A DNA stretch of 20,000 bases from an uncultured virus (IMG/VR IMGVR_UViG_3300025759_000075). Lineage: Duplodnaviria; Heunggongvirae; Uroviricota; Caudoviricetes. The first letter of the stretch is position 1. The number at the start of each line of letters is the position of its first letter. The notes beneath the pieces are model-generated. The model had not been told where the DNA came from, ran no database searches, and worked only from the letters and a program-made list of their open reading frames with translations. Where the stretch lies: positions 55,940 to 75,939 of the IMG/VR virus record IMGVR_UViG_3300025759_000075, one strand, 5' to 3'. The translations under genes and the position numbers were made by a program. Below, piece by piece: positions 2,879-19,687 of this stretch.

Positions 2879-3697
2879 TTGAAATCTCCTAAGCAGCCAA
2901 CTCCGCCAGATCCTAACGTGGTCGCGCAAGCCCAAGCCGGGATGAACATCGACACGGCTCTTGCTCAGCAGAGCCTCAACATGGTTGATACGGTGAACCC
3001 GTGGGGCACGACCAGCTATGCGCAAAACGGCCAGACAAGCTTTGTCGATAGCAACGGTCAGCGCGTTACGCTGCCGCGCTATACCCAAACCACTAACTTA
3101 TCGCCAGAACAACAGGCGATTTTCGACGCCTCGCAGGGCGCGCAGACGAACCTTGCCAATATCGCGCAGGAACAGTCTGGCCGTGTGCAGGAAACTCTTT
3201 CCGACCCGTTCCAGTTTACCAATCAGGATGCAGCCGATTGGGCCTATGATCTGGGCCAGTCACGCATTGCTCCCCAGCAGCAGCAGACCGAAGCCGCGCT
3301 TCGTGATCGGCTGATCAATTCCGGCATTCGCCCCGGCACACAGGCTTGGGATTCGGAGATGGCCCGCATGACGCAGGGCTTTAACGATCAGAACAACCAG
3401 TTAGCTTTGCAGGGCCGTGGACAGGCGTTTTCCGAGAACCTTGCCACGCGGAATCAGTCGCTTAATGAGTTGTCCGCGCTACTCTCCGGCTCGCAGGTAT
3501 CGAACCCTGCGCAGATGTCGTCTGCCACGCCTCAAGTAGGGGTCGGTGGGGTCGATTATTCCGGCATGGTCCAGAACAATTACAACAACCAGATGCAGCA
3601 GTATAACGCCCAGATGCAAAATCGCGGCGGTATGCTCGGTGGCTTATTTGGCTTGGCAGGCTCGCTTGGCGGCGCTGCTATTCGAAGGGGTTTCTGA
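2879..3697 (+). CDS. Putative DNA ejection / internal virion protein 1
   Basis: Q/N/A-rich with a Gly-rich hydrophobic C-terminus (GGMLGGLFGLAGSLGG). Preferred start is TTG 2879 (MKSPKQPTPPDP), with AGGA 8 nt upstream. ATG 2819 is an in-frame alternative. Confidence 0.6.
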   Translation: MKSPKQPTPPDPNVVAQAQAGMNIDTALAQQSLNMVDTVNPWGTTSYAQNGQTSFVDSNGQRVTLPRYTQTTNLSPEQQAIFDASQGAQTNLANIAQEQSGRVQETLSDPFQFTNQDAADWAYDLGQSRIAPQQQQTEAALRDRLINSGIRPGTQAWDSEMARMTQGFNDQNNQLALQGRGQAFSENLATRNQSLNELSALLSGSQVSNPAQMSSATPQVGVGGVDYSGMVQNNYNNQMQQYNAQMQNRGGMLGGLFGLAGSLGGAAIRRGF

Positions 3698-4461
3698 TGA
3701 TCCTCCCACAGTCTGCAATGGCCGCAGTCGATCCCGTAGCGCAGGCTTTGACGCCTGAAGCCGCGTTCACTTGGGCGCATGGTGGCTTGAAGATGACGCC
3801 GGAACAAGCGGCAATGCAGCGTCAACAGGGTATGGCGCGTAGCCGGGGTGATTACTCGCCTATCCAGCATTGGACACAGGGCCTTGCGCGTGTGGCGGAT
3901 AACGTCATGGGTGCACTAGAGGCACGTAAAGCCGACAAGCAGATTGCAGCGGGTGCAGATGCAGACCGCGCGCTGATGGAAGCGATTGCGGGCGGTGGTG
4001 TGGATGACACCATGATCGCCCGCGCACTAATGGACCCTAATGTAGGGCAGGGCGTGAAAGAGTTTGCGGGCATGGAGTATGCCGCGCGTAGGCCCAAGCA
4101 ACAGGCTCCGCTAGAGGTTGAGCGGCTAGCTATGCTGGCGAACGATCCCAGCGCAGCGCCTTACGTGCGCGAGGCAGCAGCGGCCAAGCTTCGCAATCAA
4201 AACGATCCGCTTATCACAACGACCTTGCCGGGTGACAGGTTCTATTCGGGGCCGCAATCCGGTCTGGCAGCAGCATTGGGAGGAGGTGGTCAAGAATCTG
4301 GGGCACAGTCTACGGCGGTGCCTCCCGAGGCGGTGGCGGACCTAATGGCCGATCCGTCACCGCAGGCTATGGCAGAGTTTGATGACGCATTCGGACAGGG
4401 TGCGGCAGAGCGCGCTCTAGGAGGTCAGGCGTCCGCGCCTGATCCCTTTCCCGCAAGTTAG
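3697..4461 (+). CDS. Putative DNA ejection / internal virion protein 2, 254 aa
   Basis: Ala/Gln-rich helical protein (IQHWTQGLARVA motif) within the ejection cluster, coupled to the upstream gene by TGATG. Confidence 0.6.
   Translation: MILPQSAMAAVDPVAQALTPEAAFTWAHGGLKMTPEQAAMQRQQGMARSRGDYSPIQHWTQGLARVADNVMGALEARKADKQIAAGADADRALMEAIAGGGVDDTMIARALMDPNVGQGVKEFAGMEYAARRPKQQAPLEVERLAMLANDPSAAPYVREAAAAKLRNQNDPLITTTLPGDRFYSGPQSGLAAALGGGGQESGAQSTAVPPEAVADLMADPSPQAMAEFDDAFGQGAAERALGGQASAPDPFPAS
4418..4453 (+). promoter_or_regulatory. Candidate +1 ribosomal frameshift signal (SD, hairpin, CCC.UUU.C)
   Basis: TAGGAGGT at 4418-4425, perfect hairpin TCAGGCG-tccg-CGCCTGA at 4425-4442, then in-frame CCC TTT CCC. 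The +1 frame is open into ATG 4469. Confidence 0.5.
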
Positions 4462-4843: not shown

Positions 4844-7599
4844 TGGCTGAAAATCGTTTCCAGAAATATGTCCAGCCACAGCAGGGCGTAGTGTTCACCG
4901 ATCCGAACGCGGCGGCGGAGCAGCAGCGCGAAGAAGATCGCCTTGCGATGGATCGCGAGCGCATTAGGTTAGCTCGCGAAGCTGCCGACAGAGCAGCGGC
5001 TAACGACGCCATCACGCGCGAAGAAAAGGCTGCTGAAAAAGCGCAAGCTGACAAGGAGGCTGCGGCACTAGAGGCCGCGCAGCGTAGCCAAGTGCGCGAA
5101 ACTGCCGCTACTATGAGCACGGTTATCGAGAAAGCAAAGGAGGCGAAGCGTAGATCGAACGATTGGTTCGCTACTGGCTTTGGCGCGGAAACTGCTCTTG
5201 ATTGGGGCGGCTCGGCAGCGGCAGACGTTCGAGAACTGCTTGCGCCGATTAAGGCTAATCAGGCTTTCACCACGCTTCAGAAAATGCGCGAGGCTTCGCC
5301 AACTGGTGGCGCGCTTGGTGCGGTATCCGAACGCGAACTTGCCCTGCTTCAAAGCACGATCACCGGCCTTGAGCAGTCGCAGTCTGATGCGCAATTCCAG
5401 TATGCAATGGACGAGATTGTCCAGCGTTACACGCGCGCCCTTGCCGCGCTGGAAGATGGCGACCGCTATTACCGTGAAAACGGCTCGATGGAAGGCTATG
5501 TCGGCCCTTCAGATGAATATCTGAACAGCTACAATCCTGACAATCCAGAGCCTAGAGGAGCCGCGGGTTCCGGCGCTACGCAAACCAGCCTTGAACTGCC
5601 GCAGGAATACCAGGATCGTCACGCGGCCTATCTGCGCCAGAATTGGGGCAATATCACGCCTGATGGTTATGCGCAGTTCCGTGCTGGGCTTGATAACGAG
5701 TTCCCAGAGTACGGCTCGCCTAACCTTGAGGCATACCGCGATATTGTTCCCTCCTTCAACCAGATGGCGGCAGAGGGGCAACCTCCTGAAGCCGCAGGGC
5801 AGGTTCCTGCTGCAACGCGCGAACTGTCTGGATTCGATCAGTTCCGTAATAATATTATCTCAGACCCTTTAGGTACAGGGGTAACGTCCGCGATCAATAG
5901 TGCCACAGGCGGCCTTCCTGATTTGCTCGCGGGTCGCAGGTTGCAGGCGGCGGAAGAGCTTAACCCTAAAGCAGCCTTTGTGGGCGACCTTGTTGGCAGT
6001 ACGGCAGGATCTGCACTTTTTGGTAGCGGCCTGACTGTTGCGGGGGCGGGCAAGTTCGCTCCGTTTCTCGGTGATGCGCTTTACGGGACAATGTACGGCG
6101 CAACCAGCGATGAAGACCCTGTAACTGGCGCATTGCTTGGCTTAGGTTCGTCTATAGTGGGCGACCAGGCTGGTAAATACGCGGGCCGTGCAATCAACTC
6201 GATCCGTCTGCCTGATATGAACCTTTCCGAAGGGCAGCGGGTCATTACCCAGACGGTGCGCGAAGCGGGTAATCAGGATGAAATCGCACGCGCGCTAATG
6301 AGCGCCGATGAACTTGGCGTGCCGATGACGCTGGCCGACGCATCTCCTGAATTACAGTCTCTTGCCGGTTCGGCAGTTCGCTTCTCTCCGACCACGGCGG
6401 GCGTAGCGCGGCAGACCATGGCGCGCAGGAACGAAGGCCAGTTTGACCGGCTTGCCGAGGCAGTGGCGCGTGATCTTGGCCCGGTTGAGAATATCCCTCA
6501 GCGCAGCGCCGATCTATTGCAGCAGGCACGCACTAATGCAGGGCCGTTGTATGAGCAGGCTTATGCGGCTCCAGGTGCGGATATGGTGGACCTTACCGAC
6601 CTTGCCGACCGTCCGACATTCGAAAAGGCATTGCGCGAAGCCTATAACGAGGTGCTTGACGAAGGTCTTGACCCGTCTGCCGCTGGCATTGTCCAGACTG
6701 AAGGTGGCATGGTCATGGCCTCGCCGTCATGGCAGTCCTTGGACTATGCGAAGCGCGGTCTGGACAACATTATTGAACGCGGTATTCGGCAAGGCGATAT
6801 GCCGGAAGTACGCCGTGCACAGGCTATGAAATCAACCCTATTGCAGCGCATGGATGAAGCCAATCCCGCCTATGCGGAGGCTCGTCGCGCTTATGCAGGG
6901 CCAGCGCAGGAGCGTTCGTTTATGGAGCGTGGACGCAACGTGTTCAAAGAAGATTCCGAACAGTTGGGCGTGGATATAGCCAATCTGACGCCGGAACAAA
7001 TCGGCCAAACGAGGCTCGGCGTTCAAAGCGGCACGATGCGCGAGGCGCGCAAGGTGCGGAACAACGGCAACCCGTGGGGTAGAATGGACAACCCTGAACG
7101 GGAAGCCATCTATAAAAATGTCTATGCCAGCGCCGAAGATGCCGACATCGCGCGGCTGCTGTCTCAGCGGGACCTGGAACTTCAGCTTGCAGGAAGCGCC
7201 AATCGTCTCATTGGCAACAGCGCCACGGCGGAACGCGAGATTCAAGACGAGTTCTTCAAGCATCGCACCGGCATGGGCGGCGATGTCGCAATGGGTATTG
7301 TTGAAACCGGCGCGCTCGGTGGGCCGTGGCTGACCGTAGGCAAAGGTATTGCAGATCGCGTGTTCAAGGATCGTCGCGAAAAAGCTGCAGCAACCGCAAA
7401 CCGCGCACTAGCCGACGATCTTGGCCCGCTGTTGCTCAATCAGTCGCCTACAAGCTCGGTTGATGCCTTGTCGCAGATGATGGCTGAGGATGAAGCCTAT
7501 CGCGCTATTGCGGAAAGCCTGACGCAGCAGGGTGACATGTGGGGCCGCCGTATCGGAACAGGGGCAGCTACGGCGCTAACCGATTACCTGGCTTACTAA
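4843..7599 (+). CDS. Large DNA ejection / internal virion protein, 918 aa
   Basis: Long Ala-rich helical protein with a GGALGAVSEREL motif, a central Gly-rich hydrophobic stretch and a GNSATAER motif. It is the last gene of the ejection cluster. Confidence 0.7.
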   Translation: MAENRFQKYVQPQQGVVFTDPNAAAEQQREEDRLAMDRERIRLAREAADRAAANDAITREEKAAEKAQADKEAAALEAAQRSQVRETAATMSTVIEKAKEAKRRSNDWFATGFGAETALDWGGSAAADVRELLAPIKANQAFTTLQKMREASPTGGALGAVSERELALLQSTITGLEQSQSDAQFQYAMDEIVQRYTRALAALEDGDRYYRENGSMEGYVGPSDEYLNSYNPDNPEPRGAAGSGATQTSLELPQEYQDRHAAYLRQNWGNITPDGYAQFRAGLDNEFPEYGSPNLEAYRDIVPSFNQMAAEGQPPEAAGQVPAATRELSGFDQFRNNIISDPLGTGVTSAINSATGGLPDLLAGRRLQAAEELNPKAAFVGDLVGSTAGSALFGSGLTVAGAGKFAPFLGDALYGTMYGATSDEDPVTGALLGLGSSIVGDQAGKYAGRAINSIRLPDMNLSEGQRVITQTVREAGNQDEIARALMSADELGVPMTLADASPELQSLAGSAVRFSPTTAGVARQTMARRNEGQFDRLAEAVARDLGPVENIPQRSADLLQQARTNAGPLYEQAYAAPGADMVDLTDLADRPTFEKALREAYNEVLDEGLDPSAAGIVQTEGGMVMASPSWQSLDYAKRGLDNIIERGIRQGDMPEVRRAQAMKSTLLQRMDEANPAYAEARRAYAGPAQERSFMERGRNVFKEDSEQLGVDIANLTPEQIGQTRLGVQSGTMREARKVRNNGNPWGRMDNPEREAIYKNVYASAEDADIARLLSQRDLELQLAGSANRLIGNSATAEREIQDEFFKHRTGMGGDVAMGIVETGALGGPWLTVGKGIADRVFKDRREKAAATANRALADDLGPLLLNQSPTSSVDALSQMMAEDEAYRAIAESLTQQGDMWGRRIGTGAATALTDYLAY

Positions 7600-7839
7600 G
7601 AGGCAGACCGAGAGAACCCCGCCGATTGCATATAGCGGCCAGCGGGGTTTCGGTTCTTCATAACCTGCTTTGAATCCGGCCAGATAGGCTTGGCGCACCA
7701 TGCGGTCTTTGATGCCCTGCAATGACGCTTCGTTAAGCCTGCGACGTGAACGGCGCGCAAGAAAGCCTTCTGCCTCGCTTTCCTTGAAACGGGCGCGGTG
7801 TATTTCCCGCTCAATAGCCTCGATATTCGCGTCTGCCAT
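7576..7839 (-). CDS. Small antisense moron protein with C-terminal transmembrane segment, 87 aa
   Basis: MADANIEAIER...WPLYAIGGVLSVCLLVSQVIG fills the gap between late genes and has its own promoter-like sequence just upstream. Confidence 0.6.
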   Translation of the reverse strand: MADANIEAIEREIHRARFKESEAEGFLARRSRRRLNEASLQGIKDRMVRQAYLAGFKAGYEEPKPRWPLYAIGGVLSVCLLVSQVIG

Positions 7840-7846
7840 GCCGGTC

Positions 7847-7875
7847 TTGATAGCATTCGCCCTATCGTGTAACAA
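7847..7875 (-). promoter_or_regulatory. Sigma70-like promoter for the antisense moron (probably leaderless mRNA)
   Basis: Minus strand reads TTGTTA-N17-TATCAA with an extended -10 TG, ending 7 nt before ATG 7839. No SD is present. Confidence 0.45.
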
Positions 7876-7936
7876 GGGACAACGCGGTTGAATCCACCTC
7901 ACGCGATTGCCTTGAAACGCAAGCGGAGTTCAACCT

Positions 7937-8722
7937 GTGCCACGAAATTCATCTGGCGATTATTCTCTACCGGCTGGCACCACTGTCAACACAGGGGATA
8001 CGCTGCTGGTTAGCCAGCACAATCCACCATTCCAGGATGTCGCACAGGCGCTTTCATCGTCTCTCGACCGTGACGGTAAGGGCGGAATGCGCGCCAACCT
8101 GCAGATGAATGGTAACAAGATCACGGGCGCGGCACCGGGAACTGATCCTACAGACGTTGCTACCGTGTCTCAATTGCCCGTTGGTGCGACATCGGGTGTC
8201 CCTATCGGGGCGGTAATCGACTATTGGGGGGCAACACCTCCTGCAGATTACCTCTTTGCTGCAGGTCAGGCTGTTTCGCGTACGACTTACGCGGCGCTGT
8301 TCGCGGTTATCGGCACAAGCGCGGGCGCTGGCGATGGATCCACTACGTTCAATCTTCCCGATTATCGCGGCAGGGTCGGGGCTGGACGTGAGAATATGGC
8401 AACACCTGCAACAACTCGCCTCAATACGCTGTCGAGTTCAACGCTTGGTGCTTCTGGCGGTGCGCAGACGCACACCCTGACCGAAGCGCAGATGCCGGTT
8501 CATAACCACAGCGTTACCGATCCAGGCCACTCTCACACTTATACGCGGCCTGTGTTCGCCTTGGGCAATCCCACGACGACAGATTCCGCGCTGGCTTCCA
8601 CCTCATCGGCTACGACCAACCTTGCCACGACCGGCATAACAATCGGCAACAAAGGTGGAGGTGAGGCGCATAACATCGTCCAGCCCACCATCATCTGTCA
8701 AAAAATAATCAGGATAAGCTAA
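7937..8722 (+). CDS. Tail fibre protein with phage tail-collar domain, 261 aa
   Basis: GTG start with a GGAG SD. N-terminal anchor MPRNSSGDYSLP, collar motif VPIGAVIDYWG...GQAVSRTTYAALFAVIGT...FNLPDYRGR, and HxH motifs in the tip. Confidence 0.88.
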   Translation: MPRNSSGDYSLPAGTTVNTGDTLLVSQHNPPFQDVAQALSSSLDRDGKGGMRANLQMNGNKITGAAPGTDPTDVATVSQLPVGATSGVPIGAVIDYWGATPPADYLFAAGQAVSRTTYAALFAVIGTSAGAGDGSTTFNLPDYRGRVGAGRENMATPATTRLNTLSSSTLGASGGAQTHTLTEAQMPVHNHSVTDPGHSHTYTRPVFALGNPTTTDSALASTSSATTNLATTGITIGNKGGGEAHNIVQPTIICQKIIRIS

Positions 8723-11087: not shown

Positions 11088-11428
11088 AATGGACCGAATT
11101 TCTCCGCGGACACAACGGCGGACTGGAGATCAATCGGCTTGTTGGCTTCATCGGCGGTGTTGCCTACATCGCCAGCGCCATCACGTTCCAATGGTGGAAC
11201 TGGGCAACCTTCGACGTCACGGCCTTCTGCCTAGCCTTCTCTGGCGGCTTGTCGGTCATCGTGGGTGGCACGGCTGGCGCGGTGGCCCTGAAGGATCGGC
11301 AGGTAGCTTCTGCCGCTGTCATCGCCGAAACAGGCAGCAAACCTGCCAAGCCCCCTGCACCCGCTCCGAAGCCGCAAGAGGGGCTGGATGATGGGGCAGA
11401 AGACAAGCGGCCTCCGTATGCTCGGTGA
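11084..11428 (+). CDS. Putative holin (two TM segments, charged Pro-rich tail), 114 aa
   Basis: Two hydrophobic helices; directly precedes and overlaps the endolysin. Confidence 0.6.
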   Translation: MKWTEFLRGHNGGLEINRLVGFIGGVAYIASAITFQWWNWATFDVTAFCLAFSGGLSVIVGGTAGAVALKDRQVASAAVIAETGSKPAKPPAPAPKPQEGLDDGAEDKRPPYAR

Positions 11429-12203
11429 ACCGCAATGGGCCTTAATCTTTGGCGCGGCCCGCAAGCGCGGAGCAACGTGGGATGACCTCGCAGACGTAAA
11501 CGCCTTCAAGCGCGAGATCGAGGTGGCCTTGGATGACGGCACCATCATCGTCACGGGGAACAAGCCCCCCGAAGTCCTGCCATGGGCAGACATGCTTGCC
11601 AGCATCACGAACACGAACGCCCCAGCCCTCACGCAAGACGATTACGAGCGCGCCGCCGTCGAGTTGGGCAATGGTGTCACCCCCAAGCACATGCGTGCCA
11701 GCAAGACGGTTGAGGCGCCGCGTGGGGCATTCGATGACAATGGCCGGCCTTCGATCCTCTACGAGCGCCACGTATTCGCCCGCAACACCACGCCCAAGGG
11801 GCGGTTCAATTCATCCTACCCCGACCTGTCGGCCATCCGTGGCTATGGTGCAGGCGGCTATGGGCCGTTCTCGTCGCAATACACCAAATTGCAGCGCGCC
11901 TACGCGCTAGATCCGGAATCGGCTTTTGAGGCGTGTTCATGGGGCGCGTTTCAGGTGCTTGGTGAGAATGCGGTGCAACTAGGTTATGCGTCTGCCCGCG
12001 ATATGGCCTGCGAACTGGCCAAGAGCGAAGCGGCGCACCTCGATAGCTATGTGCGATTCATCAAGGTCAATGGACTGGCAGACGAACTAGGCAGATGCCG
12101 CGCTGGCGATCCTGAAAGCTGCATACCCTTTGTCGAGCGATACAACGGCAGCGGGTTTCGCAAATTCAGTTACCATGTCAAATTCGCGGAGGCTCTGCTA
12201 TGA
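11388..12203 (+). CDS. Endolysin, N-acetylmuramidase (DUF3380-type)
   Basis: Motifs VE(A)...F...GRPSILYERHVF, SWGAFQVLGEN and YNG. The start is uncertain (11388, 11391 or 11418). Confidence 0.88.
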   Translation: MMGQKTSGLRMLGEPQWALIFGAARKRGATWDDLADVNAFKREIEVALDDGTIIVTGNKPPEVLPWADMLASITNTNAPALTQDDYERAAVELGNGVTPKHMRASKTVEAPRGAFDDNGRPSILYERHVFARNTTPKGRFNSSYPDLSAIRGYGAGGYGPFSSQYTKLQRAYALDPESAFEACSWGAFQVLGENAVQLGYASARDMACELAKSEAAHLDSYVRFIKVNGLADELGRCRAGDPESCIPFVERYNGSGFRKFSYHVKFAEALL

Positions 12204-12289
12204 ACGATAGGCTATGCAAAGCAATGCCCACGATAGCCCTTGCGCTGACCTGCTTGGCGCTTGGCCTGTTTATAGGAGTTACGGCATGA
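12200..12289 (+). CDS. 29-aa single-TM microprotein in the lysis cassette
   Basis: GGAGG SD 7 nt upstream; sequence MNDRLCKAMPTIALALTCLALGLFIGVTA; ATGA overlaps at both ends. Confidence 0.6.
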   Translation: MNDRLCKAMPTIALALTCLALGLFIGVTA

Positions 12290-12545
12290 TTGCGGAAGTA
12301 GCTACCCTTTACGAAACCAACGCGCGTTCGATTCCTGACATGCTTCGCCAAGCGGCGGATAGCATCGAAGAGGAAGCCAGCGAAGATTGCTCACCGACCG
12401 TTGCCATGGTGGCTGTCCAAATATCAGAAAGCGGTCAGGTGCATGTTTATGGATGGGGCGACACTGATGACCTCCGCGCTATTGGCCTAATGGAGCGCGG
12501 AAAGCATAGCCTCTTGGCTTCTATCGAGGAACTTACGGCATGATT
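12279..12545 (+). repeat. 13-bp direct repeat TTACGGCATGATT at 12279-12291 and 12533-12545
   Basis: Exact copies span the start codons of two consecutive genes. Confidence 0.8.
12286..12543 (+). CDS. Hypothetical phage protein, 85 aa
   Basis: AGGAG SD before ATG 12286; ATGA coupling at both ends; acidic and apparently soluble. Confidence 0.7.
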   Translation: MIAEVATLYETNARSIPDMLRQAADSIEEEASEDCSPTVAMVAVQISESGQVHVYGWGDTDDLRAIGLMERGKHSLLASIEELTA

Positions 12546-12911
12546 ACCACATTCTTTGCCTCGACCATCAATAAGGTATTCGCAGGTGTCGTTCTCGCGC
12601 TTCTGGTGGCCCTTGGGATAGCCATGTGGTCGAACGCCCGCAAGGACGCCACAATTGAAACCCTGCGCAACGCAGTGGCCGTCTCGGAGGCACAGCATAG
12701 CGTAACCGCTGCATCACTGGACTCACTGACCCGCCGCATGAAGGAGCTTGTCGAACAAGGGCAGTTGCGGGAAAGCCTGCTAGCCGAAGCCATGAAGGAA
12801 GCGGAAGAAGAAACGTCCGAATTGCAGGACGAAGCCGACGCCCTACGCAAGGAAGGTGTTACCGACCAGTGTGTGACGCCCGCTGGGGTGCTTCGAAGCC
12901 GTGGCTTGTGA
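12540..12911 (+). CDS. Inner-membrane spanin (Rz-like), 123 aa
   Basis: N-terminal TM, long coiled coil and a C-terminal Cys (DQCVTP); lies downstream of the endolysin. Confidence 0.75.
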   Translation: MITTFFASTINKVFAGVVLALLVALGIAMWSNARKDATIETLRNAVAVSEAQHSVTAASLDSLTRRMKELVEQGQLRESLLAEAMKEAEEETSELQDEADALRKEGVTDQCVTPAGVLRSRGL

Positions 12912-13029
12912 TGCTGCGGCGGGTCAGGATTTGAACCTGAGACTGACCCGCCTTCGATCCACTAGGGCCATCGACGCAGCGCTCTATCCTACAGGGCTTG
13001 GCTCCCTTCTGAGCTACGCCGCCGCAGCA
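12912..13029 (-). ncRNA. tRNA-like structured element (remodelled or pseudo-tRNA), 118 nt
   Basis: Minus strand shows terminal stem TGCTGCGGCGG/CCGCCGCAGCA, TA-GCTC-AG...A-GAGC D arm, and perfect T arm TCAGG-TTCAAAT-CCTGA. The D loop and anticodon arm are enlarged, and there is no CCA. Confidence 0.65.
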
Positions 13030-13041
13030 AGGAGAAACTAG

Positions 13042-13311
13042 ATGAAACGCATCGCCATCGCAAGCCTGTTGTTGCTTTCCGCCTGCAATCACCCGCAGCC
13101 TGGAATTGAGATACGTGAAATCCCGGTTGTCGTACCATCCCCTTGCTTGGCCAAAGACGACATCCCACCCGAACCAGCCCAAGTAGGCGACCAGCTAACC
13201 GGCAATGCCGCGTCAGACCTGCTTATCGTGGCGGCGTCTGCGCTGGAATTGCGGGCGGCGGTTATCACGATGAGAAGCGCGCTTTTGGCTTGTGCGGAGG
13301 GTGAGGGTTAG
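13042..13311 (+). CDS. Outer-membrane lipoprotein spanin (Rz1-like), 89 aa
   Basis: AGGAGA SD; signal peptide with lipobox LSAC; Pro-rich mature region with further Cys residues. Confidence 0.8.
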   Translation: MKRIAIASLLLLSACNHPQPGIEIREIPVVVPSPCLAKDDIPPEPAQVGDQLTGNAASDLLIVAASALELRAAVITMRSALLACAEGEG

Positions 13312-13568
13312 CTGTTCCTGTAGGCGCTATATGCGTCCGCAACATCGGCAAGAGCGTTGGCGTGGAACCCTTCGTCAATGGCACTGTAATGTTCAGCGCG
13401 TTTGCGAAGGTCGGCCACGACAATAGCGATAGCGGCGTCTGCGTCAGGCAGCCAGCAATCAACCATCTCAGCCACGTCTGTTTCAGACAAGCTTGGGAAG
13501 TTCCGGCGGATCATCGCCTTCGCCACTTCATCCCTAAGCATACCACACTCCTTCCCCTGCGCCGTCAT
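13308..13568 (-). CDS. Hypothetical phage protein, 86 aa (last gene of the leftward operon)
   Basis: ATGA coupling to the upstream gene; its stop overlaps the convergent o-spanin stop. Confidence 0.7.
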   Translation of the reverse strand: MTAQGKECGMLRDEVAKAMIRRNFPSLSETDVAEMVDCWLPDADAAIAIVVADLRKRAEHYSAIDEGFHANALADVADAYSAYRNS

Positions 13569-13885
13569 CCGGCATTCTCGGTTAGTATGCCAGAGGGTTT
13601 GGGCGCATGAACCGCGCTTTCGTCCTTCGGATCGAGCCCTTCGGTCTCGCCGGTTCCCGCTTCAATCGCTTGCGCGAGTATCCGGCTCAGCTCGGGGTCT
13701 GGCTTAGGCGGGTGGCACCATTCGCAAGGGCGGATGCATAAACAAGAACCCTCGCCTTCATCGTAGGTGTCGCATTGCCAATCCCACGAGCATCCGTAGA
13801 TAAAGCCTTCGCCGTGGCAATTCGCGCAATCGCTTTCATCAAAATCCCAGTAGGGGTCATCCCCCCGCTCAATACCAATCGGCAT
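13565..13885 (-). CDS. Cys-rich acidic protein (CxxCxGxG zinc-finger-like), 106 aa
   Basis: GGAG SD before ATG 13885; motifs CANCHGEG and CLCIRPCEWC. The C-terminal tail is encoded by structured element A. Confidence 0.65.
   Translation of the reverse strand: MPIGIERGDDPYWDFDESDCANCHGEGFIYGCSWDWQCDTYDEGEGSCLCIRPCEWCHPPKPDPELSRILAQAIEAGTGETEGLDPKDESAVHAPKPSGILTENAG
13603..13675 (-). repeat. Structured element copy A (73 nt, multi-hairpin, GAA triloops)
   Basis: Minus strand reads GCGCA A GCG ATTGAAG CGG-GAA-CCG G CGAG AC C-GAA-G GG CTCG A TCC-GAA-GGA CGAAAG CGC GGTTCA TGCGC. It is homologous to 14095-14166. Confidence 0.8.
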
Positions 13886-14183
13886 CGGTCTGCTCCATAA
13901 AACCAAGGGGGTAATTTTCTGGCAAGGGCATCCAAATGGCACCGCGCAGAAAATCATCGCCCAGAGGAAAGGCGTCTTCGCCATCAAGCGGACCATCGTC
14001 GCTCATCATCGCAAGGGATGACGAGCAGCCATCATCGCAGACTATGACAACCTTTTGCCCTGGTTGCGGCGGGTCGATTTCCCAAGACGCCCACGCGTCA
14101 GGGATTGAAGCCTTTGGTGGAGACGGCACGGCTCCATCGCGAAGCGACGAAAGCCCGCCCGGACGCACATCATCCTTATCCAT
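13869..14183 (-). CDS. Hypothetical protein, DUF551-like, 104 aa
   Basis: W...PP.PGQKVVIV...WMPLPE pattern; TGATG coupling. The N-terminal extension is the antisense reading of element B. Confidence 0.6.
   Translation of the reverse strand: MDKDDVRPGGLSSLRDGAVPSPPKASIPDAWASWEIDPPQPGQKVVIVCDDGCSSSLAMMSDDGPLDGEDAFPLGDDFLRGAIWMPLPENYPLGFMEQTDADWY
14095..14166 (+). repeat. Structured element copy B (72 nt), inverted relative to copy A
   Basis: Plus strand reads GCGTC A GGG ATTGAAG CC-TTT-GG T GGAG AC G-GCA-C GG CTCC A TCGC-GAA-GCGA CGAAAG CCC GCCCG GACGC. Confidence 0.8.
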
Positions 14184-14335
14184 CACACCCTCCCTCCGTT
14201 AAGCGCATCCAGAGCGGCTTTAAGCAAAGACCTGCGGGGTGTTTCCATGGGCAATATCCGCCCGGTGTAGCGATGACCTCCGCCGAATGCGTGGGGATCG
14301 CGATTAGTGCGGGTAAGGCGTTCTATGCGGCTCAC
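14183..14335 (-). CDS. 50-aa basic microprotein, FGGG..Y..RILPME family copy 1
   Basis: GTGA coupling; paralogous to 15724-15864. Confidence 0.65.
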   Translation of the reverse strand: MSRIERLTRTNRDPHAFGGGHRYTGRILPMETPRRSLLKAALDALNGGRV

Positions 14336-14637
14336 TTTGCGGCTCCTTTCAGGGATCGGATGGCTTGGGCAACATCGTTGCAAGCCTCATTGTAGATGTC
14401 GGGCCGCATGTCTCCAGCAGACGCAGAGGCATCAACGTAGTGCTGCGCATAGCGTTCGCCTTCAGCAGACTCCGCCGCCCGCTCGTATGCCTCTCGCACC
14501 TGTTCCTCCAACCGAGTGTTACGGGCTTCGAGTGCGGCGATGTGGTCGCGGGCAGCAAGGAACGTGCACTCAGGGCGACCGCACTTGCAATCGAGCAAGA
14601 CAAGCATGTCCTGCGTCTGCTGTGCTAGATCACTCAC
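14332..14637 (-). CDS. Hypothetical coiled-coil protein, 101 aa
   Basis: GTG start overlaps the upstream stop; contains AARDHIAALEARN...IRSLK. Confidence 0.65.
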   Translation of the reverse strand: MSDLAQQTQDMLVLLDCKCGRPECTFLAARDHIAALEARNTRLEEQVREAYERAAESAEGERYAQHYVDASASAGDMRPDIYNEACNDVAQAIRSLKGAAK

Positions 14638-15239
14638 TGGCCTGATCCTTCGTTGAGTAGGTTGTCGATGCGAGTGATAGCCTCCCATGCGATTGCATCG
14701 TTCATTTCATGCCCACCGCCGGGGTCGCCTTCGCAAACCGCACAGCCACGACAATTGTTGCTTATGCGCTCCAGATACTCCCTCACTGTCATGAACCCTT
14801 CCCGCTCTCGCGTGGGGGCGGATAGGGCGGCGCAAGAGGGGCATGGCAGACCTAAATCAGACGGCAGCATGGTGCGGTGGCCAACGGGTGGATCGACTGC
14901 ATAAACTCGAGCGGCTTCACGCGCCGCTGCCACCTTGTCGGCTTCGGTTTCGCAGGCGTCCTTATCCCAAGCCAGTTTTGCCAAAAGGCCCGTTGCCGCC
15001 TCGACGTTTGCCACCCAGTCGGCAAACTCATCCCGATAGCGGTCGTCGTCCCATTCATACGGCCCGCGCCCTTCCAGCAGCCAGCGATGCCCGTTGAGCG
15101 CGCGTTTAATGTGGCCAAGTGCGATTGCCACAATGTAGCGATCACGGTCGAGCAGATGGCGCATGTCTTCCAACCCCGCCGCGCTCGGCTCGGTCTTGGC
15201 GGATTTCAGCATTTCTCCTGCTTTGTTACCATCGGTCAT
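14634..15239 (-). CDS. Hypothetical phage protein, 201 aa, with CxxC motifs
   Basis: GAGG SD and ATGA coupling; contains WLLEGRGPYEWDDDRYRDEF, CPSC and CRGCAVC. Confidence 0.7.
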   Translation of the reverse strand: MTDGNKAGEMLKSAKTEPSAAGLEDMRHLLDRDRYIVAIALGHIKRALNGHRWLLEGRGPYEWDDDRYRDEFADWVANVEAATGLLAKLAWDKDACETEADKVAAAREAARVYAVDPPVGHRTMLPSDLGLPCPSCAALSAPTREREGFMTVREYLERISNNCRGCAVCEGDPGGGHEMNDAIAWEAITRIDNLLNEGSGQ

Positions 15240-15724
15240 GTGTTATTTCCTCGTCTGGCGAGACTAACGGCACGGTGACGCAAATTCTTGCATGCCTTGC
15301 ATCTCTTATATCCCGTCTTTTTGTTTATATATGTATTCTCTGGCGTGTACTCGTGGCCCCGTCCACAATGGGTCATCCCCTGAGTGGCCATCTTCCTAGA
15401 AATGCCACTGTTGCCCCTCTGAATGTTCACAATGTGGGTAACGGGCTCAAGGTGTTCTGGATTGCAACACGCCCGATTGCGGCACAAGTGGTCAACTACT
15501 AAGTCTGTAGGAACCCGCCCCTTAGTAAGATGGTAGGCAAATCGGTGAGACGATACCCGACCGAGCGGCTTGAAGTTGAATGACCCATAGCACTTAGGAT
15601 TTAGATAGCCTTTCCACATCCAGCATTGGTCGCGCGTTCCGCGGTCTATTTTTGACCAAAACCTATCCTTCACTTTTTGCGAGATCGCTTCTGGGTCTGG
15701 GATGGGTTTGATTTTAATAGGCAT
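15236..15724 (-). CDS. HNH (His-Me finger) endonuclease, 162 aa
   Basis: CWMWKG...HRFAY...VVDHLCRNRACCNPEHLEPVT...N, plus a C-terminal THCGRGH...RCKAC zinc motif. The DNA is visibly more AT-rich than its neighbours. Confidence 0.92.
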   Translation of the reverse strand: MPIKIKPIPDPEAISQKVKDRFWSKIDRGTRDQCWMWKGYLNPKCYGSFNFKPLGRVSSHRFAYHLTKGRVPTDLVVDHLCRNRACCNPEHLEPVTHIVNIQRGNSGISRKMATQGMTHCGRGHEYTPENTYINKKTGYKRCKACKNLRHRAVSLARRGNNT

Positions 15725-15864
15725 CACCTCGATCCTTTAAATATCCGCGCAAACAGTCCGGGCCTCTCCATGGGCAGGATGCGCGCGTTGTAGTGGTAGC
15801 CGCCGCCAAAGTTCTGGCGGGGTGCGAACCTGTGGCTGCGTTCGTATGTGTGCGAGCGGGTCAT
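15724..15864 (-). CDS. 46-aa basic microprotein, FGGG..Y..RILPME family copy 2 (absent from the ORF track)
   Basis: Sequence MTRSHTYERSHRFAPRQNFGGGYHYNARILPMERPGLFARIFKGSR; ATGA and TGATG coupling. Confidence 0.7.
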   Translation of the reverse strand: MTRSHTYERSHRFAPRQNFGGGYHYNARILPMERPGLFARIFKGSR

Positions 15865-18958: not shown

Positions 18959-19137
18959 CCCCCGACTACCGCGACCGCTACTTGCAATCCAGGATCCAGT
19001 TAGCCGACACCAAGGCTGCTCTTGGAAATGTGACCCACGCACTCCTACTCGCCTGCAAAGCTTTGGAGAGCGAGGGCCACGATGTCAGCCACCTTAGAAC
19101 AGCCGCAACAGAGACTGAAGGATTACGCTATGAATAG
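18955..19137 (+). CDS. Hypothetical protein, 60 aa
   Basis: ATGA coupling; begins MTPDYRDRYLQSRIQL. Confidence 0.6.
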   Translation: MTPDYRDRYLQSRIQLADTKAALGNVTHALLLACKALESEGHDVSHLRTAATETEGLRYE

Positions 19138-19687
19138 GCCAGTGGAGATAACCCCTGCTGTCCTGCGCGATCTCATATCATACGATCCGGAAACTGGCGA
19201 TATGGTATGGAAAGAAAGGCCCGCAAAGTTTTTCATCGGAGCGAAAAGGGACGGCGATTGGTCGGCTAAGCAGTGGAATAGTCGGCTAGCGGGTAAGCCA
19301 GCTTTGGCTTCGGTTGCCGCTACCGGTTGCCTCAACGGAAGCGTTTTTGCGCAACCCCTTCTGGCTCATCGCGTGGCGTGGGCCATCTACCATGGAGAAT
19401 GGCCTAAAAATGAAATTGACCACATCAATGGGAATAGGGCCGATAACCGAATTGTTAATCTACGAGATGTTCCGCGCTCTTTGAACGTCAAAAACTGCAA
19501 ACGCCGAAAAGACAACACTTCAGGTTTCGCAGGAGTGTACCGGTATAAGAACCGATACCTCGCCCATCTTCGCATTAACGGAAAACTGAAGATCGTTGCT
19601 CGGTGTGACACGCCAGAAGAAGCTTTCGCCATTCGCGAGCAGGAAAAACTCAAATATGGCTTTCACCCAAACCACGGAAGAGATTGA
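19130..19687 (+). CDS. HNH endonuclease with C-terminal AP2-like domain, 185 aa
   Basis: Motifs YDPETG, AHRVAWAIYHGEWP..IDHINGNRADNRIVNLR, NTSGFAGV and PEEA. Confidence 0.92.
   Translation: MNRPVEITPAVLRDLISYDPETGDMVWKERPAKFFIGAKRDGDWSAKQWNSRLAGKPALASVAATGCLNGSVFAQPLLAHRVAWAIYHGEWPKNEIDHINGNRADNRIVNLRDVPRSLNVKNCKRRKDNTSGFAGVYRYKNRYLAHLRINGKLKIVARCDTPEEAFAIREQEKLKYGFHPNHGRD

Follow-up and report, generated by a model that had tools for sequence, protein, structure and literature searches.

The described signals that come closest to the structure considered here fold on a single strand of DNA. Primosome assembly sites of the PriA type carry an AAGCGG or GAAGCGG motif. The IncQ plasmid RSF1010 has two related hairpin signals, ssiA and ssiB, which lie on opposite strands and act as a pair; each is a single hairpin of about 40 nt within oriV, and the primase that recognises them is RepB', which the plasmid itself supplies. 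On the T-strand of conjugating plasmids, hairpins aid the conversion of single- to double-stranded DNA, and in the accessible parts of the relevant papers Frpo is the only type named (PMC10085688; PMC11541004; PMC12672017). The Frpo/ssi sites of classes 1-3, from F and IncI plasmids, are described there as long hairpins (about 300 nt) in which -35 and -10 boxes are rebuilt; they form on the T-strand of the leading region and precede early anti-defence genes (PMC11541004; PMC12672017). The CUP repeats of IncN plasmids have been described, again in partly accessible sources, at the 5' ends of leading-region operons (PMC6289460; PMC5371602). According to the available text, attC sites and the DUF1874 motif are folded single-stranded DNA (ssDNA), situated in consecutive intergenic regions antisense to the cassette genes (PMC5737381), and structured ssDNA motifs more complex than a hairpin would be rare (Weinberg et al. 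2017). The present study concerns a multi-helix element in the last 20 kb of the 75.9-kb uncultured virus record IMGVR_UViG_3300025759_000075 in IMG/VR; this whole 20,000-nt stretch is called the window. It contains two copies, A and B, of the element, for whose family the name element E is used here and which may be a folded single-strand signal of phages and conjugative plasmids.

Copies A and B lie on opposite strands, one sense and the other antisense to the surrounding minus-strand operon, as had been proposed in an earlier reading of the sequence alone, and all of the details listed in that sequence-only reading are present (Table 1). P1 is GCGCA/TGCGC in copy A versus GCGTC/GACGC in copy B, P2 is GCG/CGC versus GGG/CCC, H1 is CGG-GAA-CCG versus CC-TTT-GG and H3 is TCC-GAA-GGA versus TCGC-GAA-GCGA. 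H2 reads (C/G)GAGAC...GGCTC(G/C) in both copies, which also have the unpaired motifs ATTGAAG and CGAAAG in common. BLAST at E<=10 did not link the copies to each other, and a repeat search yielded only 18-nt and 12-nt seeds for them amid many chance seeds. The proof of their relationship is comparative. Covariance model R1, which was seeded from 21 other IMG/VR loci, includes no window sequence and covers only P2, H1 and H2, recognised exactly two sites in the 20-kb window when scanned with the filters off: the core of copy A (13612-13669, minus strand; 37.1 bits, E 1.3e-9) and the core of copy B (14101-14158, plus strand; 29.8 bits, E 2.6e-7). The next best site reached 9.9 bits (E 0.44). At the level of sequence comparison the A/B pair is thereby confirmed as real, and its copies as covarying members of one structured family, as had been supposed.

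Relatives of the two copies were found in IMG/VR, in bacterial genomes and in plasmids, and covariation within the family is strong. A first pattern scan with the motifs shared by A and B gave 34 IMG/VR loci, 28 of which had the whole architecture and matched R1, the other six being chance matches. A second scan in which H2 was left unconstrained gave 93 loci; all of the 80 that were fetched matched R1, with 114 matches in total. Locus L071 is the same phage as that of the window. E was also found in many bacterial genomes (at least 121 loci) and in about 400 plasmid records, obtained in two scans (41 and 372) and mostly typed as conjugative (35 of the 41 and 338 of the 372). Nearly all of the plasmid matches listed fall into unannotated DNA, and in E. 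coli all 79 places are on plasmids. In the cultured-phage database, Microcystis phage Mvi-Yong1342-1 is the only carrier of E. It is likewise the only deposited phage with similarity to window positions 13000-15300, and this similarity is limited to 77 nt of copy A (89.6% identity), the flanks being unrelated. Among 105 distinct sequences, 95.9% of the cells in the helices are paired and both sides have changed in 11 of the 12 pairs, values that none of 500 shuffles reached; sliding the partners abolished the signal. The GAGAC of H2 is kept in 83-96 of 96 sequences, even though the second scan did not require it.

The family is apparently unnamed. Rfam reportedly holds the motifs of the DUF1874-motif study, and our test against Rfam 15 took in hammerhead, twister, hatchet, pistol, HDV-like, C4, STAXI and DUF1874. 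It gave no match at the gathering score in the window, nothing on E at E<=10 in window positions 13300-14500, no match at E<=1 in 12 canonical loci, nothing meaningful at E<=10 for a 121-nt canonical copy and nothing on E in the region of an IncN-like plasmid. A full-text literature search, whose reach excluded supplements and some candidate older papers, found no description of E.

Across the family, E is 65-112 nt long, typically about 75-90 nt. The fold begins with the 5-bp helix P1, a bulged A and the 3-bp helix P2, continues with ATTGAAG, the hairpins H1 and H2 and optional further hairpins, and ends with ACGAAAG and, beyond the closing strands of P2 and P1, a CCA tail. P1 starts with G. 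Of 110 elements, 96 have a P1 of exactly 5 bp and 87 have the bulged A after it. The base before P1 is C in 46, T in 35, A in 12 and G in none; after P1' come C (95), C (79) and A (60 of 110) and then an A-rich run. H2 is near-invariant, GAGAC/GGCTC with an A.G mismatch or a bulged A. Of the optional hairpins, H3 is inserted between H2 and ACGAAAG and H4 between P2' and P1'. Copy A reads GAAGCGG, in which a PriA-type motif had been seen, and copy B reads GAAGCCT. The motif is not a feature of the family: of 101 sequences, 78 continue GAAGC with C and 23 with G. The consensus has no mimic of -35 and -10 boxes.

The loops, the scarcity of wobble pairs, the orientation relative to genes and a strand rule in plasmids favour folded DNA on the E strand over RNA. 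Mini-hairpins closed by GNA triloops, which are unusually stable in DNA, dominate on this strand, as the two copies in the window had led one to expect: 115 elements contain 212 of them versus three with TNC loops. In the same elements, 319 triloops stand against 177 tetraloops, of which 43 are GNRA and one is TNCG. Calculated with DNA parameters, the E strand folds more stably than the complementary strand in 110 of the 115; with RNA parameters it does so in 85. G-U pairs make up about 1% of the paired cells, and among the mismatches in P1 A.C occurs seven times versus five for G.T/T.G, so that wobble is no better tolerated than A.C. In phages, the orientation of E relative to the genes is mixed, not fixed.

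The folded-ssDNA reading, first proposed from the window, gains independent support from conjugative plasmids, five of which were used to compare the strand of E with that of the relaxase gene. In the IncN-like MOBF plasmid L263 the relaxase gene is on the minus strand and all four copies of E are on the plus strand; in the IncW-like MOBF plasmid L264 the relaxase gene is on the plus strand and all three copies are on the minus strand. The PromA plasmids L265 (MOBP; relaxase minus, both copies plus) and pSB102 (MOBP; relaxase plus, both copies minus) and the MOBP plasmid pXap59 (relaxase minus, its single copy plus) have the same arrangement, so that each of the 12 copies is found on the strand opposite to the one that codes for the relaxase. 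We infer that all 12 belong to the transferred strand, the one whose 5'-to-3' direction leads from oriT into the leading region. The polarity of the two MOBF plasmids follows the accessible description of R388, in which the stb/ssb side is the leading region. In both of them the copy between stbC and a SprT-like gene is sense to its neighbours and the other copies are antisense; what is constant is therefore the strand and not the transcript.

The position of E in plasmids is also characteristic. In the IncN-like, IncW-like and PromA plasmids it is located at the far upstream end of early small-gene operons and 3' of hairpin-rich GC regions on the E strand. The order in the IncN-like plasmid is E, about 400 nt of hairpin-rich GC DNA, an AT-rich promoter region and the early-operon gene. 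In the PromA plasmids E occupies a noncoding gap of about 0.9-1 kb that is full of GNA-triloop hairpins and separates a leftward block of small unknown genes from the rightward transfer operon. The 400-700 nt on the 5' side of E, on the same strand, are GC-rich in PromA and IncN-like plasmids (L261 3263-3980; L263 23430-23800) and are packed with GNA-triloop mini-hairpins and GGTGACA...TGTCACC repeats; E may form the 3' edge of a larger folded single-strand region there. In chromosomal clusters that resemble integrative and conjugative elements (ICEs), the copies within each cluster are co-oriented. Such loci in Cupriavidus (L189), Dechloromonas (L142), L212 and other beta- and gammaproteobacteria have at least two co-oriented copies about 1.2 kb apart, which adjoin DUF736 and GNAT acetyltransferase genes.

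Based on strand and position, it is tentatively proposed, with a probability of roughly 0.45, that E is a folded single-strand DNA signal whose probable task is to start complementary-strand synthesis. The E strand would be exposed when a plasmid enters the recipient, or as the displaced or lagging strand in phage replication or recombination. Its GC-rich, triloop-capped fold would stay free of single-strand binding protein (SSB) and would be recognised by a conserved priming or helicase-loading enzyme. Synthesis of the complementary strand would then start at E and run towards the 5' side of the element, which in plasmids would take it across the adjacent promoter and early operon and quickly make them double-stranded. 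By analogy with ssiA of RSF1010, synthesis may start at the conserved CC(A) tail that follows P1 on its 3' side. In the phage there is one copy per strand and therefore whichever strand is displaced would carry the signal.

Several points weigh against this proposal. The transferred strand was deduced and not taken from a mapped nick site, and for the three MOBP plasmids the sole basis of the polarity is that the relaxase operon enters last. Nor are the 12 copies independent, as they include duplicates within plasmids and two plasmids that are both PromA. Double-stranded phages do not have an obligatory single-strand entry stage. The junction sequence conserved across phyla, the pyrimidine at -1, the G at +1 and the CCA tail would suit a processed RNA as well, and the rarity of G-U pairs may simply be the product of short, strongly selected helices. 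Because alignment A4 was fitted to the model, its pair counts are biased in favour of the structure, and the invariance of ATTGAAGC and CGAAAGCCC is partly by construction because the scans fixed these two motifs. In the window itself, copy B lacks the CCA tail and has ACATC instead, and the single-sequence DNA folds of the two copies are unexceptional (z -1.15 for A and -0.93 for B).

The record from which the window is taken consists of two genomes in tandem, each of about 38-41 kb, lambdoid-type and podovirus-like; they are related but differ in sequence. The two units have the same gene order, with TerL of 516/517 aa, the portal protein of 771/766 aa and further proteins of 933/918 aa, and each has one TerL gene (record positions 6446-7996 and 47542-49095). 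The record is either a pair of tandem prophages or an assembly join. E is confined to the second unit; the sister unit is devoid of copies, and R1 found nothing above 12 bits in the rest of the 75.9 kb. The leftward operon, near whose distal end the doublet is situated, extends on the minus strand from 13308 to about 18800 and borders on the convergent lysis cassette. It is made up of small unknown genes and also contains one for an HNH endonuclease. The inflection of the GC skew coincides with the gene-strand switch at 13311 and is for this reason unusable as evidence. Three free-standing HNH endonuclease genes occur in the early regions of the second unit (window 15236-15727, minus strand, and 19082-19687, plus strand; L041:4888-5634, plus strand). 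An early protein of 468 aa (L040:14019-15425, plus strand) has matches among the PHROGs of DNA methyltransferase as well as those of DNA primase; farther along the rightward operon there are two more methyltransferase genes (L041:2477-3076 and 3332-4102).

Table 1. Features of the window in and around copies A and B of element E (window coordinates; ORF, open reading frame)
Feature	Position	Strand	Remarks
Lysis cassette	11388-13311	+	closes rightward late operon
Endolysin	11388-12203	+	
Rz-like i-spanin	12540-12911	+	
Lipoprotein-like ORF	13042-13311	+	89 aa; signal peptide ending LLSAC; looks like o-spanin
Last gene of leftward operon	13308..13568	-	86 aa; ATG overlaps gene Y stop (ATGA)
Gene Y	13565..13888	-	107 aa from ATG at 13888; longest ORF start 13996
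Gene X	13869..14186	-	105-aa ORF
Copy A including tail	13598..13675	-	sense to operon; element proper 13603-13675
Copy A P1	13675-13671 with 13607-13603	-	
Copy A bulged A	13670	-	
Copy A P2	13669-13667 with 13616-13614	-	
Copy A ATTGAAG	13666-13660	-	
Copy A H1	13659-13651	-	
Copy A H2	13650-13632	-	
Copy A H3	13631-13623	-	
Copy A CGAAAG	13622-13617	-	
Copy A tail	13602-13598	-	CCAAA
Spacer	13676..14094		419 bp between 5' ends of copies A and B
Copy B	14095..14166	+	antisense to operon
Copy B P1	14095-14099 with 14162-14166	+	
Copy B bulged A	14100	+	
Copy B P2	14101-14103 with 14154-14156	+	
Copy B ATTGAAG	14104-14110	+	
Copy B H1	14111-14117	+	
Copy B H2	14118-14136	+	
Copy B H3	14137-14147	+	
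Copy B CGAAAG	14148-14153	+	

Both copies are read through by genes. The start of gene X and a GGAGG-like site lie just outside the 3' end of copy B, and the first 30 or so codons of the gene traverse the reverse complement of this copy. The spacer holds the end of gene X and the core of gene Y. The product of gene Y is a small protein rich in Cys, and copy A forms part of the sequence that encodes its C-terminal tail; the stop codon of the gene follows 38 nt past the copy and overlaps the next start codon. Neither gene has a Pfam or PHROG match. Gene Y has a homologue in the sister unit (L040:10823-11128, minus strand), to which it is similar in the Cys-rich core (38 of 63 residues identical, E 1e-27), and the homology stops about 25 nt before copy A. 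The tail of gene Y has been replaced there and not cleanly inserted, so that the comparison provides no clean empty site. With the homology ending before copy A, the peptides encoded by E are non-conserved terminal extensions, as had been supposed. The core itself (window 13709-13846, minus strand) has the pattern C-x2-C ... C-x-C ... C-x2-C in both genome units, and the protein may be a zinc-binding early protein. Copies A and B open in the same frame (AQAIEAG.. and ASGIEAF..). Between copies of the family the frame varies, copy A being read as GCG ATT GAA GCG and the L022 copy, in its ATG-led frame, as GGA TTG AAG. The claim that coding cannot explain the conservation holds: a protein-coding repeat was rejected on account of these different frames, of the intergenic position of E in low-GC phages and plasmids and of the end of gene Y homology before E.

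In phages, the divergent doublet is a recurrent arrangement. Among close neighbours (<=800 nt apart, non-redundant), 16 of 21 pairs are divergent with their 5' ends inward, two are convergent and three direct. The doublet recurs in high-GC phages, and the layout of a start codon, the reverse complement of E, a spacer, E and a stop codon is found again in Mvi-Yong, L136 and L137. The spacers are unrelated in so far as tblastx of 19 of them showed no shared similarity at E<1e-3. Divergent pairing, as noted in the window, recurs in phages but does not extend to plasmids and ICE-like islands with their co-oriented arrays. Complete relatives of about 42 kb have 6-8 copies in both orientations within roughly 8-15 kb, and the number per complete relative ranges from 1 to 8. 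Low-GC phages and proviruses possess 1-4 copies, all co-oriented within a genome, and in gut-type phages E is antisense to both neighbours. No neighbouring gene is conserved: terS is downstream in three loci, and elsewhere major head, anti-restriction or unknown genes are found. In the low-GC phages L022, L018 and L010 a sigma-70-like promoter (TTGACA, a spacing of about 17-19 nt and a TATAAA-like box) follows 30-60 nt after E, in L018 and L022 with the small terminase gene behind it; E therefore lies upstream of the promoter and not in a 5' untranslated region.

The sequence-only reading had also taken the doublet for a bidirectional origin. As pure geometry this is right: helicases loaded on the two copies would move away from each other. 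That the doublet is a primary bidirectional origin is nevertheless unlikely because the sister unit has no E, relatives carry anything from 1 to 8 copies in arrays, and the arrays of plasmids and ICE-like islands are co-oriented. E is presumably an accessory signal and not the primary origin of the phage.

Instead of a priming signal in DNA, E could be a structured RNA, either a small non-coding RNA or an excised processing module such as an RNase P-like substrate or a new self-cleaving ribozyme, with its ends at Y|G1 and after the CCA tail and with the invariant junction and H2 binding a host factor. Covariation, a near-invariant junction, optional stem insertions and scattered contexts are the signature of ribozymes and small RNAs. 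The pyrimidine-rich position before P1, the G with which P1 starts and the CCA tail would fit as well, since Y|G...CCA ends resemble the substrate determinants of bacterial RNase P, and the calculation with RNA parameters likewise favours E over its complement, in 85 of 115 cases. We nevertheless consider an RNA unlikely. One copy of each phage doublet is always antisense to the operon, E of gut-type phages is antisense to both neighbours, and the constant in plasmids is the presumed transferred strand and not the gene strand. No conserved promoter precedes E in the sequences inspected, and in several loci the sigma-70-like promoter is downstream. There is no U-run terminator, G-U pairs amount to about 1% with no excess of G.U over A.C, and the loops are GNA triloops and not GNRA or UNCG tetraloops. 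No Rfam family matches, and ARAGORN, applied to 26 loci, reported no tRNA-like gene (0 tRNA or tmRNA genes).

An equally improbable explanation treats E as a folded-DNA module of recombination or mobility, similar to attC or to REPINs and miniature inverted-repeat transposable elements, with the doublet as a mobile or recombining unit around shuffled small genes. Copies do occur in consecutive intergenic regions around single genes (L036, L012, G007, G008, G010 and ICE-like loci), their number varies from 0 to 8 among related phages, with none in the sister unit, and the doublets enclose non-homologous cargo. Copy A has a counterpart of about 90% identity in a phage that is otherwise unrelated, the ends of E are sharp and brought together by P1, and a gene for a XerD-type recombinase is found about 350 nt from the Mvi-Yong doublet. 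The CUP repeats of IncN plasmids, where E lies, have been reported to mediate homologous recombination, according to the accessible part of the source (PMC5371602). Yet no recombinase or transposase accompanies E across its contexts, its sequence is far more conserved than that of attC and lacks the R/L-box symmetry, and no target-site duplication was seen in the flanks inspected, which was judged by eye only. The comparison with the sister unit, as mentioned, gave no clean empty site. Moreover, the copies within a genome are not near-identical and have diverged with compensatory changes, as would be expected of long-term selection for the fold and not of recent spread.

Still less probable is that E acts as folded ssDNA in a role other than priming, be it as an accessory of a single-strand promoter, in the control of SSB or RecA loading, or as a decoy against host defences. 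The evidence from strand and loops would apply to such roles as it does to priming, and they would accord with the position of E, which forms the 3' border of the long, hairpin-rich GC stretches ahead of early operons, and with neighbours that include anti-restriction, ssb, SprT/ArdC-like and DUF932 genes. However, E has only about 80 nt and no -35/-10 mimic, in contrast to the Frpo classes of about 300 nt, and no link between E and any defence system was found.

A similarly doubtful reading is that E is a natural, sequence-conserved multi-helix DNA fold, a DNA 'aptamer' or even self-processing DNA, which phages, conjugative plasmids and ICEs would all have taken up on their exposed single strand and on which one enzyme of replication or transcription, universal among bacteria, would land in hosts of different phyla; the sharp Y|G1...CCA boundaries would then mark a defined start or cleavage point. 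Likenesses to the hammerhead, HDV-like and DNAzyme cores were dropped since the junction topology does not fit, and a nut/put-type pair for antitermination was dropped since in each doublet one of the two copies runs antisense to the operon. Weak matches to archaeal C/D-box snoRNA models in the spacer (13959-14039, minus strand) are taken for chance, with scores below half of the gathering scores (sR14 19.8 bits versus 38). A chance resemblance of A and B, or a shared peptide, is refuted by the independent model and by hundreds of covarying relatives.

If E is such a signal, its significance extends beyond the window. For the conversion of transferred plasmid strands and displaced phage strands into duplex DNA, and for the switching on of early anti-defence genes, the only signal type known is Frpo of F- and I-type plasmids; for the broad-host-range IncW, IncN and PromA plasmids, ICEs and most phages no signal is described in the literature searched. 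With its distribution from Bacteroidia phages to Proteobacteria plasmids, its strand specificity and its sharp ends, E is a testable candidate for the missing signal and would offer a handle on a host enzyme that recognises folded DNA. Should the 'aptamer' reading be true, E would be the first complex, i.e. non-hairpin, functional DNA structure common to phages, conjugative plasmids and ICEs. It would also be evident that annotation misses a whole family, as E is hidden in unannotated gaps or, in GC-rich phages, in the ends of ORFs.

Among the known systems, the ssi and primosome assembly sites (G4-type for primase, phiX174-type for PriA) share several properties with E. They, too, are folded hairpins on a strand that becomes single-stranded, and they are found in phages and conjugative plasmids upstream of the region to be copied. 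Location on the exposed single strand applies to E in 12 of 12 plasmid copies, with the nick polarity inferred. In contrast to these sites, E is a compact multi-helix junction whose near-invariant unpaired motifs are conserved across phyla, and of the PriA-type motif it keeps GAAGC, followed mostly by C. The phage doublet follows the same strand logic as ssiA/ssiB of RSF1010; unlike them, E is larger, occurs in multiple copies away from any known origin and has no dedicated primase that could be identified. With the Frpo/ssi sites E shares the presumed fold on the T-strand, the leading region and the position upstream of early genes, and it differs from them in its length of 65-112 nt and in having no -35 and -10 boxes.

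E may coincide in position with the CUP repeats. The four copies of E in the IncN-like plasmid L263 (at 18983, 21654, 22279 and 23811) lie in long gaps upstream of leading-region operons (ccgAII, ssb and TrfB/ArdK-like genes), where CUPs are described. In the accessible text the CUPs appear as double-stranded promoter and ArdK-operator repeats, with no mention of a folded module or of phage relatives. Like attC sites and the DUF1874 motif, E is a folded ssDNA site that recurs in consecutive intergenic regions. Unlike attC, it has neither R/L boxes nor an association with an integrase, of which none was found nearby in most of the contexts examined, and its degree of sequence conservation is much higher. 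In place of the attC core RYYYAAC / GTTRRRY, P1 with its flanks has GAGTTAGCG or GCGCAAGCG, and the flanks, GTT on the 5' side and AAC on the 3' side, have the reverse of the attC polarity. REPs and REPINs resemble E in being small structured units, either solitary or paired as inverted doublets around a short spacer. REPINs reside on chromosomes in many near-identical copies and are linked to a RAYT transposase, whereas the copies of E are few, diverged and located on mobile elements. E is thus best filed as a kind of folded single-strand DNA signal that, in IncN plasmids, overlaps the region of the CUP repeats.

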